Source of the DNA: Candidatus Woesearchaeota archaeon
Lineage (GTDB): Archaea; Nanobdellota; Nanobdellia; Woesearchaeales; UBA12501
Length of the DNA: 64,000 bases
NCBI GenBank assembly: GCA_030651375.1
Contig: JAUSFM010000009.1
Coordinates: forward strand, 65,345 to 129,344
Direction of reading: 5' to 3'
Position numbers and translations under genes: made by a program. Below, piece after piece: positions 61,082 to 64,000 of the stretch (position 1 is its first letter; each line of letters opens with the position of its first letter). The notes beneath the pieces were generated by a model. That model worked only from the letters and a program-made list of their open reading frames with translations, was not told the DNA's origin and searched no databases.

Positions 61082-62359
61082 TTATCTCATTCCCATCACT
61101 CGCTCTGCTTGAGCAATCGCATAGTTTCTAAGATACCGTTCTGCTTGTTTCGATGCATTCGCAGGCAAGTTTCTTCCCCGCATGATATGCTCGTCAAGAG
61201 CTGCATAATCATGGCTGCGTACATAGAATTCAACTGCTTTTCTCACGGCACGGAGCCGGAGATTGTCAGGCAATACGTCTGCGCGCGCTATCCATAAAAA
61301 ATCAGATGCGTGGGGCTTCTGCGGCCACGTTTGTGAAAGCAGGTAGCTGATGCCGTATGCTTTCATTTCTGGGGAGAGATCATCGTGGTCCAAAATAGTA
61401 AGCCGTATATTGCTATATGAATCCCGATCTTTTTGAAACCGAATAAAATCACTCAATGCTTTTTTTCGCAGCGTTTCTGGAAGCGCAGTGTCTGCAATAA
61501 ACGCTACGACCTGATCTCTATACCTCAAATGTTCATTCTGTCTAATCCATGTTGATGCAACACTGGTGGCTTTTTCACGCGCTTTTTTTCGTACTTCTTT
61601 TGGAAGGAATCTTTCATTTGCCATACATTTGAGTGCAAGATACTCATTCTCTCGGGTATGTTCTTCTATTGCTTTTTCTGCAGCGGGGCCAAGAGCGGCT
61701 CGTATCTGTATGCGATGGGGAGCAGGGATTCTTTTGTTTGTTCTACTCTCTTCATACAAATGTTCATACGAGCCCTGTTCAACACAGTTGGTTATATACG
61801 CTGATAGCGCAGCATCCATCCCTGCTTCTGCTGCATGCCGTACTTCATCAGGAACTTTACGGTTGTGGGAAAGTGCCAGGACTTCAATATAATTTCCTTT
61901 TTCCACATCGAACTCAACAAGATTTTTTCCTGCAGCAACACGAGTTTCATCAGGAGCATATTTGTTTTGGACGAGATTGAGAAGACGATACTGTCCTCCG
62001 TCTCCTCCGCGCGCCACATACAATTCGATCAGCTTTTCCCCGGCGGCACGGCGAATGTCATCGGGAAGTGTTGTATCTAGTGCCAGAACTTCTAATTCAC
62101 CGGTATCTTTTTTTTGCAGTACTTTTCGCGCCGCAGCGGGAAGGTGTTTTTCTGCATCTTCTGGTATTCCTGCTGGAAGAGAATCTCTATTCTCCTCCAC
62201 AGTAAGAATGGAAAGAGCAGTGTACATTCCGCGTTGGACATAGGTTGATACTGCCAGTTTTCCTGCGGCAAGACGCTTTGCTTCATCCGGATGCCAGCGC
62301 ATGACGGCCAGCAGCGATTCCAGCGTATCGCGCGGTTCAAGATCAGGAGTTGGTCCCAT
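61082..62359 (-). CDS. Hypothetical alpha-solenoid repeat protein
   Basis: Recurring LPDDIRRAAG / APDETRVAAG / VPDEVRHAA / LPKEVRKKA / LPETLRKKA / LPDNLRLRA helical units. Confidence 0.75.
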   Translation of the reverse strand: MGPTPDLEPRDTLESLLAVMRWHPDEAKRLAAGKLAVSTYVQRGMYTALSILTVEENRDSLPAGIPEDAEKHLPAAARKVLQKKDTGELEVLALDTTLPDDIRRAAGEKLIELYVARGGDGGQYRLLNLVQNKYAPDETRVAAGKNLVEFDVEKGNYIEVLALSHNRKVPDEVRHAAEAGMDAALSAYITNCVEQGSYEHLYEESRTNKRIPAPHRIQIRAALGPAAEKAIEEHTRENEYLALKCMANERFLPKEVRKKAREKATSVASTWIRQNEHLRYRDQVVAFIADTALPETLRKKALSDFIRFQKDRDSYSNIRLTILDHDDLSPEMKAYGISYLLSQTWPQKPHASDFLWIARADVLPDNLRLRAVRKAVEFYVRSHDYAALDEHIMRGRNLPANASKQAERYLRNYAIAQAERVMGMR

Positions 62360-62477
62360 ACAAAAGAACTAAGTATAGATGTTTATATAGTTTGTTGGGG
62401 TGGAGAATAAAACCCCCTGAACGTTTAAAAATCAACCACAACAATATTTATAAATATGCTCCCGTGCCACCGACGAT

Positions 62478-64000
62478 ATGACGTTTAGACACCGCACCAC
62501 GCCGGAACAGCGCCGGAGAAAGCTCAAGGAACTTCTTGCAGCAGGAAAACTCGTGCGCGTTATCGAGGCACACAACGGCTTGAGTGCGTTGGTAGCGACC
62601 GAAACAAAAGTGGAAGTTGGCGGAGAGTTAAAAGAATTCGACGCAGTCTGGGAAAGCAGCCTCACTGATTCCGCCTCAAAGGGCCAGCCGGACATTGAAG
62701 TCGTTAGCTATGATTCCCGCATCAACACCATCCAAGAAATTTCAAACGTCACCGACAAGCCGATTATTGTTGACGGTGACACCGGCGGCGATCCGAGCCA
62801 TTTTGAATATTTTGTCAAGCGGCTGGAGCACATCGGCGTCTCTGCGGTCATCATCGAAGACAAAGTGTTTCCGAAGCGTAACAGTTTGGATGCCGACGCG
62901 AAACAAGATCTTGAAGACCCGCATCTCTTTGCCACAAAAATCAAGCGCGGCAAGAGCATGCTGCTGACGGATGAATTTCTGATTTTTGCGCGCCTTGAAA
63001 GTTTGATTGCCGGCGCTAGTGTTGAAGATGCGCTGAAGCGCGCGCGCATCTACCTGCAGGCAGGCGTTGATGGCATCATGATTCATGACAAGGCAAAAGA
63101 CCCAGCGCAGGTGTTCCGGTTTGCTGAAGAATACAAAAAACTTTGCAGCGAGCTCGGCGTCAGCAAGCCCTTGGTCAGCGTGCCCACCACCTACAACACC
63201 GTGACTGAAGAAGAGTTGGCTGCACGCGGATTCAACATTGTCATCCACGCAAATCATTTATTGCGCTCTTCGTACAAGGCCATGCAGGCAGTGGCAAAAA
63301 CAATCCTCACCAACGGCCGCTCCTTTGAGGCGGACGCGCAGTGCGCTGCCGTCAAAGACATCTTTGAGATTGTCGGCTTTTCCGACGTCAAAAAGAAAGA
63401 TGAACAATACGCACCAAAATACACGGGCTTCCGCGCCATCATTCCGGCAGCAGGCGCCAGCAGTGTTTTTTCTCATCCAAAGGCATTGCTGGATATTAAC
63501 GGCAAAACCGTGCTTGAGCGCCAGCGGGACACGCTCCAGCGCGCCGGCATCCGCGAAGTGTCGGTCATCCGCGGCTTCAAAAAAGAACTGTTCACCGTGC
63601 CAAAAATAAAATACCACGACAACGACCAGTACCAGACTACCCACATTCTTGATTCGTTGTTCTGCGCCAAGGATGACATGGGCAATGGCTTTGTTCTTGC
63701 CTATGCGGACGTATTGTTCCACGAGTCACTTATCAAAAACCTGCTCGATGCGCATGGTGATATCGTCCTTGTCGTCGATAATACGTATCGCCACCACACG
63801 CATGAAGTGGACAAGGAACTCGACCTCGTTATTGCAACGAACGAGCCCTCGCTGCGCCACCTCAACCCCTCCCTGCACCGCCACGTTTCCCGCATCGGCA
63901 AAAAAATTCAGAAAGAAAACGCAACGCACGAATTTGTCGGGCTTGCAAAATTTACGCCTGCAGGAGCCGACGCATTGTTAAAACTGTATGATGAATGCCG
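62478..64000 (+). CDS. pepM: Phosphoenolpyruvate mutase fused to a C-terminal nucleotidyltransferase (partial, runs off the window; not in the ORF track)
   Basis: Hand translation from ATG 62478: IEAHNGLSA, WESSLTDS, VDGDTGG, EDKVFPKRNS (EDK-x5-NS), ARLESLIAG, VPTTY; then AIIPAAG...PKALLDINGKTVLERQ...YADV; TTTATAAA 31 nt upstream. Confidence 0.92.
   Translation, partial: MTFRHRTTPEQRRRKLKELLAAGKLVRVIEAHNGLSALVATETKVEVGGELKEFDAVWESSLTDSASKGQPDIEVVSYDSRINTIQEISNVTDKPIIVDGDTGGDPSHFEYFVKRLEHIGVSAVIIEDKVFPKRNSLDADAKQDLEDPHLFATKIKRGKSMLLTDEFLIFARLESLIAGASVEDALKRARIYLQAGVDGIMIHDKAKDPAQVFRFAEEYKKLCSELGVSKPLVSVPTTYNTVTEEELAARGFNIVIHANHLLRSSYKAMQAVAKTILTNGRSFEADAQCAAVKDIFEIVGFSDVKKKDEQYAPKYTGFRAIIPAAGASSVFSHPKALLDINGKTVLERQRDTLQRAGIREVSVIRGFKKELFTVPKIKYHDNDQYQTTHILDSLFCAKDDMGNGFVLAYADVLFHESLIKNLLDAHGDIVLVVDNTYRHHTHEVDKELDLVIATNEPSLRHLNPSLHRHVSRIGKKIQKENATHEFVGLAKFTPAGADALLKLYDEC

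Follow-up and report, generated by a model that had tools for sequence, protein, structure and literature searches.

A PEP mutase-nucleotidyltransferase fusion in a Woesearchaeota archaeon as candidate entry point of a dispersed hydroxyethylphosphonate-branch pathway

Which phosphonate would a small archaeon make, and where would it put it, when its genome holds a phosphoenolpyruvate (PEP) mutase fused to a nucleotidyltransferase (NT)? The question is raised by the 3' end of a 64,000-nt window, the whole stretch of DNA analyzed here, from a Candidatus Woesearchaeota archaeon (GCA_030651375.1, contig JAUSFM010000009.1, 65,345-129,344 of the forward strand). We refer to the source genome as G000, to the window as G000:C10:65345-129344, to a congener (same genus) as G001, and to loci by L-numbers. 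The genome comprises 1,297,443 bases in 23 contigs and is scored 100% complete; this size (1.30 Mb) agrees with the small-genome archaeon that an initial annotation of the window had recognized, as do the named relatives of its LysRS, which among the best 120 are Woesearchaeota, Nanoarchaeota, Nanoarchaeia or simply "archaeon." On balance, we lean toward the mutase, PepM, fused to a divergent domain of the PntC/LicC fold, being the entry point of a predicted 2-hydroxyethylphosphonate (2-HEP)-branch pathway distributed over four loci. The product is likely a 2-hydroxyethyl- or C1 phosphonate tag on surface glycans and not 2-aminoethylphosphonate (AEP). PepM and the phosphonopyruvate decarboxylase Ppd are identified by family tests, and the later steps are those that we infer.

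The fusion gene begins at an ATG at position 62478 of the plus strand, and its frame is still open where the window's final complete codon is reached (62478..63998, 507 aa, 3' open), as the initial annotation had read it and as both the window sequence and a list of open reading frames (ORFs) with open ends confirm; the default ORF list lacks it because frames running off the source sequence are not listed. The frame closes 178 nt past the window end; the window itself holds (62478..64000) the first 507 of the 566 codons of a gene located at C10:127822-129522 (L002:823-2523). The PEP mutase domain, delimited by the TIGR02320 match, spans aa 16-299 (62523..63374, plus strand) and contains exactly where it had been reported, at 62856..62885, the motif EDKVFPKRNS (codons GAA GAC AAA GTG TTT CCG AAG CGT AAC AGT), which corresponds to the PepM signature EDKxxxxxNS. 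A MobA/LicC-like NT domain of the PF12804 family follows in frame from aa 320 (63435..64000, plus strand) and continues to aa 566 past the window. Both Pfam matches, PEP_mutase PF13714 over aa 16-277 (E 2.6e-51) and NTP_transf_3 PF12804 over aa 320-440 (46.7 bits for a cut-off of 27), are far above chance and bear out the in-frame fusion proposed initially. Upstream of the gene, a TATA-like box read from the sequence, TTTATAAATA (62447..62456, plus strand), is a predicted promoter whose center lies about 27 nt 5' of the pepM ATG; a TATA-like element resembling it, TATTTAAAT, is found 24-32 nt 5' of the ppd ATG, and both would fit the archaeal TATA boxes of leaderless mRNAs.

Is the N-terminal part a mutase at all? 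The fusion reaches 343.6 bits with the PEP mutase equivalog TIGR02320, above the cut-off of 319.55, and fails with the models for phosphonopyruvate hydrolase (PPH; TIGR02321, 152.5 bits vs a cut-off of 374.4), methylisocitrate lyase (PrpB; 103.5 vs 354.4), and carboxy-PEP (CPEP) mutase (42.4 vs 420). Its closest solved structures are PepM 5UNC (E 2.7e-45) and the Mytilus PepM 1M1B (E 4e-44). When aligned with the latter, residues D72, D99, D101, E127, K133, N135, S136, R172, and H203 are identical, nine out of nine, to D58, D85, D87, E114, K120, N122, S123, R159, and H190, which we take to be the active-site and Mg-site residues of the Mytilus enzyme; a 9-residue insert relative to 1M1B (aa 43-51) falls outside these nine columns. 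The EDKxxxxxNS motif itself serves as a Ppm filter in published work (PMC6697681). We therefore regard the N-terminal part as encoding a genuine PEP mutase, the predicted maker of the C-P bond. The initial annotation had named a hydrolase as an outcome that would refute its reading, and a PPH or another isocitrate-lyase-family enzyme in catabolic use could indeed appeal to a strong match in the PDB to PPH 2DUA (E 1.7e-40). Nevertheless, this match arises because the PepM and PPH families are close; the PPH model fails by a wide margin while the PepM equivalog passes, the EDKxxxxxNS motif is intact, and Ppd, a biosynthetic partner, adjoins pepM. PPH and the other isocitrate-lyase enzymes are ruled out by the curated model scores, and we give a catabolic enzyme practically no credence.

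The region beyond the window had been predicted to contain ppd and a transaminase, and only the first of them is present. Ppd (376 aa, L002:3025-4155) lies 0.5 kb downstream of pepM-NT and scores 446.6 bits with TIGR03297 for a cut-off of 312.5. Neither a transaminase nor a transferase was found downstream of ppd in the 17 kb examined, and a search of the 100% complete genome with the AEP transaminase (PhnW) model TIGR03301 gives at best 49.8 bits vs a cut-off of 360.8. No glycosyl or CDP-alcohol transferase, for which the initial annotation had suggested looking downstream, adjoins pepM. The interval between pepM-NT and ppd is occupied on the minus strand by a HicA/HicB toxin-antitoxin pair (HicA, PF07927, 56.3 bits; HicB, PF15919, 31.6 bits) at C10:129525-129970 (L002:2526-2971), 181-626 nt past the window end. 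A 148-aa plus-strand ORF of the same interval (L002:2582-3028), Cys/Phe-rich and belonging to no family, was rejected as a shadow of the minus-strand HicA/HicB. In G001, pepM-NT and ppd are 12 nt apart and the HicAB insert is absent. A convergent TPR-like gene after ppd closes the locus.

The setting of these genes was examined in 401 genomes of the phylum, all at least 90% complete, searched with TIGR02320. Twenty of them score above the cut-off and three more at 314.9-318.3 bits; these 23 genomes are termed PepM-positive hereafter and the other 378 PepM-negative, three further genomes at 114-137 bits being taken as carrying other members of the family. Among 40 closer relatives, the PepM part is matched only in G001 and G012. 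Two architectures occur in the phylum: proteins of ~430-460 aa with an N-terminal PF01467 cytidylyltransferase (CyTase), as in Fom1, and proteins of ~545-590 aa with a C-terminal PF12804 domain, as in G000. The initial annotation overstated the rarity of such a system in archaea, given 20 of 401 genomes above the cut-off and the fact that Ppm-PF12804 fusions represent 33% of non-redundant Ppm proteins (Rice et al. 2019, PMC6697681); Ppm is reported from 1.6% of RefSeq archaea (PMC8942020). A limited literature search retrieved no link between Woesearchaeota and phosphonate synthesis, and the supplementary tables of PMC9381506 and PMC8942020 may list such genomes. Ten pepM neighborhoods were annotated with Pfam. 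They comprise 147 ORFs of 110 aa or more, of which 136 were covered; the remaining eleven were the five longest ones and six located at locus ends or close to them. All ten are set amid glycosyltransferases, flippases, and sugar-nucleotide enzymes. Ppd is present in eight, not being seen in L056 (a 7.6-kb contig) and L061, and an Fe-alcohol dehydrogenase (Fe-ADH) in six; CDP-alcohol phosphotransferases occur in five, B12-radical SAM genes in three, and LicD and an NT-Aminotran_5 fusion like Tde1415 in one each.

The recurrent Fe-ADH bears directly on the branch taken after Ppd. In G000, an Fe-ADH encoded at C16:4112-5245 is the sole PF00465 match of the genome, and among NCBIfam models it scores best with TIGR03405, a phosphonate-associated one (PhpC/FomC-type phosphonoacetaldehyde reductase), reaching 213.5 bits for a curated cut-off of 423.7. 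Directly upstream of it lies a stand-alone NT (C16:3306-4115, PF12804), and the block continues with an HxlR-type regulator, a radical SAM/SPASM enzyme (rSAM; C16:5701-7221, L021:5575-7221, PF04055 and PF13186), and GlmS. The congener carries on one contig, in order, PepM-NT (70% identical to that of G000), Ppd, exonuclease III (Xth), NT, Fe-ADH, HxlR, rSAM/SPASM, and GlmS; from this contiguous order it follows that the G000 genes represent one cluster that has since been split. At the start of contig C16, 2.3 kb upstream of the NT-Fe-ADH-rSAM block, a tyrosine-recombinase/integrase gene (C16:186-1001, L021) may be relevant to the way in which the cluster, contiguous in G001, came apart.

The model of the initial annotation was a different one, in which PepM and Ppd supply an AEP transaminase, CMP-AEP is formed by the fused domain, and glycans or lipids are decorated with AEP. 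AEP is the commonest branch, with 56% of ppm neighborhoods compared to 8.5% for the HEP branch (PMC8942020), and a relative, G306 (L057), has the Tde1415-like NT-Aminotran_5 fusion adjoining Ppd; G000 itself possesses a phosphatidylserine (PS)-synthase/decarboxylase lipid locus and, in a glycan island described below, a class-III aminotransferase fused to a PseF-like domain. This aminotransferase nevertheless scores best as GSA-aminomutase-like and sits in a nonulosonic-acid pathway. No PhnW-type enzyme was found in the complete genome: among class-V pyridoxal phosphate (PF00266) proteins, the PhnW models TIGR03301 and TIGR02326 reach at most 52.5 bits, and the two strong PF00266 matches, both SufS-like (TIGR01979, 587.8 and 269.3 bits), were rejected as AEP transaminases on this ground. 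With Fe-ADH as the companion of pepM in G001 and in six of the ten neighborhoods, we hold the AEP model to be quite improbable for G000.

The rSAM of the C16 block is a distinctive companion of these genes. Within the genome sample, it occurs in 4 of the 23 PepM-positive genomes (G000, G101, G197, and G186) and in none of the 378 PepM-negative ones, and among the 40 closer relatives in G001 only (65% identity), besides a weak 26% match in G021. Furthermore, 39 metagenome loci encode a homologue 58-99% identical to it. In 30 of these loci, tblastn with G000 proteins detects PepM, Ppd, NT, or Fe-ADH next to this homologue, although several of the loci nearly duplicate one another and the 30 cases are hence not independent. 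Such neighbors are lacking in nine loci: six contigs shorter than 5.1 kb and L071, L084, and L100. A database search yields 159 proteins at E <=1e-20, the best 120 of which are 55-99% identical, are named generically "radical SAM protein," and originate from Woesearchaeota, Rhodospirillaceae, Acidobacteria, Patescibacteria, Gamma- and Deltaproteobacteria, and Omnitrophica; between archaeal and many bacterial labels, the family retains 55-84% identity. The metagenome neighborhoods and the restriction to PepM-positive genomes of the sample argue that this rSAM/SPASM family belongs with phosphonate genes. Besides the CX3CX2C motif, nine cysteines are invariant in an alignment of 28 sequences. With its AlphaFold2 (AF2) model (pLDDT 84.6), Foldseek retrieves generic SPASM/twitch enzymes, the best being the anSME 4K38 (E 7.5e-12, TMt 0.64, 15% identity), and also SkfB, CteB, BlsE, DesII, and viperin; in the ESM Atlas only "radical SAM" clusters are matched. 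A limited literature search retrieved no described role of a SPASM radical SAM enzyme in phosphonate pathways.

The presence of this enzyme invites comparison with fosfomycin, whose early pathway Fom1 (CyTase-PepM)/Fom2/FomC/Fom3 likewise runs from PEP to phosphonopyruvate (PnPy), phosphonoacetaldehyde (PnAA), and HEP, followed by HEP cytidylylation and a radical SAM step; the Fom1 CyTase makes CMP-HEP (PMC6697681). By the same logic, G000 might release a diffusible small-molecule phosphonate, with CMP-HEP handled by the radical SAM enzyme, instead of building a surface tag. PepM, Ppd, Fe-ADH, a cytidylyltransferase, and a radical SAM enzyme do mirror the Fom set, and no transferase adjoins pepM in G000. 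Fom3, however, is B12-dependent, whereas the G000 enzyme has a SPASM domain and no B12-binding domain (PF02310) and so does not qualify as a Fom3-type B12 radical SAM enzyme. Fom1 differs as well by its N-terminal PF01467 CyTase, a form found in the phylum (L059-L062) but not in G000. No epoxidase or hydrolase partner was seen, the clusters of the relatives are embedded in glycosyltransferase, flippase, NeuB, and DegT genes, and two NTs together with a CDP-alcohol transferase fit conjugation. A diffusible product thus appears improbable to us, and a surface tag remains the reading that we prefer.

A further candidate step emerged when the ORFs of the 39 rSAM metagenome loci were clustered. A 412-aa family without a Pfam match, located between pepM and rSAM in L095/L096, matches the methylphosphonate synthase (MpnS) 6B9S (E 3.6e-33). 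Its G000 homologue (427 aa) is encoded on the minus strand at C16:158773-160056 (L112:6773-8056) and matches 6B9S (E 4.2e-28) and HEPD 6B9R (E 9.8e-25); neither this protein nor its L096 relative matches an NCBIfam family at E 0.001. MpnS and HEPD are 2-His-1-Gln oxygenases acting on 2-HEP, and the metal-ligand columns H148, Q152, and H190 of 6B9S are kept as His/Gln/His in G000. Two further columns discriminate the solved enzymes, Phe/Ile in 6B9S and Tyr/Gly in 6B9R; they read Phe/Ile in G001, G101, G186, G247, and L070, and Tyr/Ile in G000. According to Born et al. 2017, Phe162/Ile184 are said to mark MpnS, as against Tyr/Gly in HEPD. Given Tyr/Ile, both methylphosphonate and hydroxymethylphosphonate are kept as candidate products for G000. 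The homologue is present in 4 of the 23 PepM-positive genomes (G000, G101, G247, and G186), adjoining pepM in the latter three, and in 0 of the 378 PepM-negative ones; in G001, it lies on another contig than the pepM cluster.

It may also be that 2-HEP itself is the end product, cytidylylated and attached to glycans, the MpnS/HEPD homologue being inactive or foreign to the pathway. HEP-decorated polysaccharides are described from Stackebrandtia (PMC8942020), 19 of the 23 PepM-positive genomes of the sample have no MpnS/HEPD homologue, and the G000 protein is isolated, divergent, and Tyr/Ile at the discriminating columns. The retention of its His/Gln/His columns, its restriction to PepM-positive genomes with pepM adjacency in the other three, and the MpnS-type Phe/Ile in the congener and three relatives make us consider this alternative unlikely, albeit a serious one. 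Whichever of the two applies, the lack of an AEP transaminase combined with the Fe-ADH and MpnS/HEPD set, and a core that is contiguous in G001, lead to 2-HEP or a C1 derivative, and not AEP, as the predicted product.

How the phosphonate would be activated depends on the two NTs of the genome. The AF2 model of aa 315-566 of the fusion (pLDDT 91.3) retrieves with Foldseek, as best match, the PntC-AEPT Tde1415 6PD1 (E 5.8e-15, TMq 0.74), with LicC 1JYK at TMq 0.76 and UDP-glucose pyrophosphorylases close behind 6PD1. A PDB sequence search with the fused domain retrieves LicC only (E 4.5e-8), Tde1415 not being found at E up to 1, and the identity to Tde1415 (6PD1/6PD2) and to Streptococcus pneumoniae LicC (1JYK) is only 17-19%. 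The model thus points to a PntC/LicC fold of divergent sequence. NTs of this type have the loop consensus GXG(T/S)RX4-8PK, and the R15A and K25A variants of Tde-PntC each retain <10% activity (PMC6697681). The nucleotide-binding loop of the fused domain, AAGASSVFSHPK (aa 324-335, 63447..63482, plus strand), deviates from it: the Lys is kept, no Arg or Lys stands between AAG and PK, and the loop is shorter than the consensus. The loop Arg of Tde-PntC therefore has no counterpart here. The stand-alone NT (269 aa, 28% identical to the fused domain) has in contrast a loop of canonical form, AAGMSKRLMPITTNLPK.

This peculiarity extends beyond G000. From 34 sequences (the query and 33 matches), 30 with the EDK motif were aligned after one fragment and three sequences without the motif had been dropped; none of the 30 fused domains fits GXG(T/S)RX4-8PK as written. 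The short loop is common to the ten closest of them, and the PK lysine is retained in ~20. In several distant ones an insert is followed by K/R-L (KTRL, for instance), possibly an equivalent feature. Near the C-terminus, the W-x-E-x-D position is occupied by His in seven of nine fused domains and by Asp in four of four stand-alone enzymes. These features suggest to us, with modest confidence, that in the PepM-fusion clade the separate NT carries out the activation, and, with the same modest confidence, that the fused domain is weakened or serves another purpose such as binding or assembly. The enzymes assayed in Rice et al. 2019 are Ari1348 and Tde1415, and no assay of a Ppm-fused PF12804 domain was noted in the passages and discussion consulted (PMC6697681).

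Where the activated phosphonate would be attached is suggested by two CDP-alcohol phosphotransferases of G000, on C1 and C13. The C1 enzyme lies beside phosphatidylserine decarboxylase and is therefore probably engaged in lipid head-group synthesis. The C13 enzyme (C13:108786-109490) finds its best match within the sample in the enzyme encoded next to pepM in G133, with 35% identity along the full length. Its homologues (E <=1e-10) are found in 11 of the 23 PepM-positive and 28 of the 378 PepM-negative genomes, an association that is an enrichment and not an exclusivity, among related genomes that are non-independent. It belongs to a glycan island of ~30 kb (C13:82-113 kb) with PMT_2, three GT1, two GT2, a polysialyltransferase-like protein, a flippase, a PseB-like dehydratase, DegT, a NeuB-epimerase fusion, and a type-I phosphodiesterase-family protein. 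The NeuB fusion (C13:100172-102436, L063:173-2437) joins NeuB to a UDP-GlcNAc 2-epimerase, and the class-III (GSA-aminomutase-like) aminotransferase mentioned above is the one fused to the PseF-like cytidylyltransferase at C13:105542-107668 (L063:5543-7669). DegT and NeuB also stand beside rSAM in 11 and 5 of the 39 metagenome loci, and their G000 counterparts are those of the C13 island.

The pathway that we favor would then proceed as follows. Ppd would draw the unfavorable mutase reaction forward to phosphonoacetaldehyde, which the Fe-ADH (C16:4112-5245) likely reduces to 2-HEP; from 2-HEP, the MpnS/HEPD homologue (C16:158773-160056) would produce methyl- or hydroxymethylphosphonate by trimming, and the CMP-phosphonate is likely made by the stand-alone NT (C16:3306-4115), whose loop is canonical. 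The conserved radical SAM/SPASM enzyme (C16:5701-7221) would provide a tailoring step, and transfer of the phosphonyl group to a surface glycan containing nonulosonic acid would fall to the C13 CDP-alcohol phosphotransferase. In this scheme the fused domain is possibly weakened in catalysis.

Several observations weigh against this scheme. The pathway is predicted from genes; those of G000 are unclustered, and their linkage relies on the synteny of a relative and on co-occurrence among related, non-independent genomes. The Fe-ADH stays below the curated TIGR03405 cut-off. The MpnS/HEPD homologue is isolated between KefC-like and ornithine carbamoyltransferase (OTCase) genes, is only 26-38% identical to the homologues of the relatives, has at the discriminating columns Tyr/Ile, the pair of neither 6B9S nor 6B9R, and would catalyze a type of step that needs O2. 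The rSAM receives no reaction assignment, its best NCBIfam score of 41.5 bits being far below any cut-off, and the absence of the loop Arg clouds the part of the fused NT domain in the pathway. Finally, the CDP-alcohol transferase has homologues in the 28 PepM-negative genomes as well, and the class-III aminotransferase fused to the PseF-like domain leaves room for AEP.

Pathways that tailor surfaces with phosphonates of the HEP/methylphosphonate type are a known kind; the one predicted here would be new for this group. Metcalf et al. 2012 reportedly described a methylphosphonate (mpn) cluster in Nitrosopumilus maritimus. This archaeon makes methylphosphonate on exopolysaccharide (PMC9381506, PMC8942020), and the described cluster resembles the G000 set in its archaeal PepM, Ppd, Fe-ADH-type reductase, MpnS-family oxygenase, NTs, and polysaccharide genes; N. 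maritimus belongs to the Thaumarchaeota, whereas G000 is a DPANN archaeon whose genes do not form one cluster and include in addition a radical SAM/SPASM enzyme, and whose oxygenase homologue has Tyr/Ile. Bacterial Ppm-PF12804 Pnt clusters are alike in having PepM followed by a MobA/LicC-like NTP transferase, a second stand-alone NT, and a predicted cell-surface destination (PMC6697681, Fig. 3c). As far as that source describes them, G000 departs from them by its archaeal host, the predicted HEP instead of the AEP branch, its four dispersed loci, and the loop AAGASSVFSHPK, which is off consensus. An archaeal-associated PepM with a C-terminal cytidylyltransferase and a glycoconjugate gene set is described from the Borg "Cobalt 308" (bioRxiv 10.1101/2024.11.05.622173), but that gene is carried by an extrachromosomal Methanoperedens element, for which an AEP-type partner (a PntC-AEPT-like protein) is reported. 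Unusual in G000 are thus the four dispersed loci in a DPANN genome, the degenerate-looking loop of the fused domain, and the uncharacterized radical SAM family.

Much organic phosphorus is present in the form of phosphonates, and one of them, methylphosphonate, is a precursor of methane. A bolder version of our scheme, which we put forward only tentatively and would not rank as probable, is that of a groundwater DPANN archaeon setting a methylphosphonate-type tag on a sialic-acid-like glycan, one step being catalyzed by the radical SAM/SPASM enzyme and the separate NT performing the activation next to a crippled fused domain. Were this true, Woesearchaeota would be an unrecognized subsurface source of this methane precursor. 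The experimentally confirmed archaeal phosphonate producer named in one report is Nitrosopumilus (bioRxiv 10.1101/2020.11.04.368217); with PepM in about 1 of 20 sampled Woesearchaeota/Nanoarchaeota-type genomes, several of them with an MpnS-type gene, the predicted capacity would reach groundwater archaea that depend on hosts and have small genomes, in which a surface tag resistant to phosphatases could play a part in attachment or phage evasion. Wider questions raised by this locus concern the role of the PepM-fused PF12804 domain with its degenerate loop and the chemistry of the phosphonate-linked radical SAM/SPASM family.

The GC content of pepM (51.4%), ppd (51.5%), and rSAM (51.0%) exceeds the genome value of 46.9%, the 95th percentile of 1.5-kb windows being 51.5%; this excess is too weak to call gene transfer, which was not retained. 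Upstream of pepM, the window encodes on the minus strand (61082-62359), and so in divergent orientation, a 425-aa repeat protein without a Pfam family; the region upstream of pepM in G001 carries large proteins of 925 and 977 aa, HEAT-repeat and unassigned, that are encoded in the same direction as pepM (L022:3412-9936). Farther along the contig, at C10:135365-137305 (L002:8366-10306, minus strand), a 646-aa fusion combines an N-terminal class-1 fructose-1,6-bisphosphatase with a C-terminal DeoC/LacD-type aldolase (PRK06852, 479 bits).

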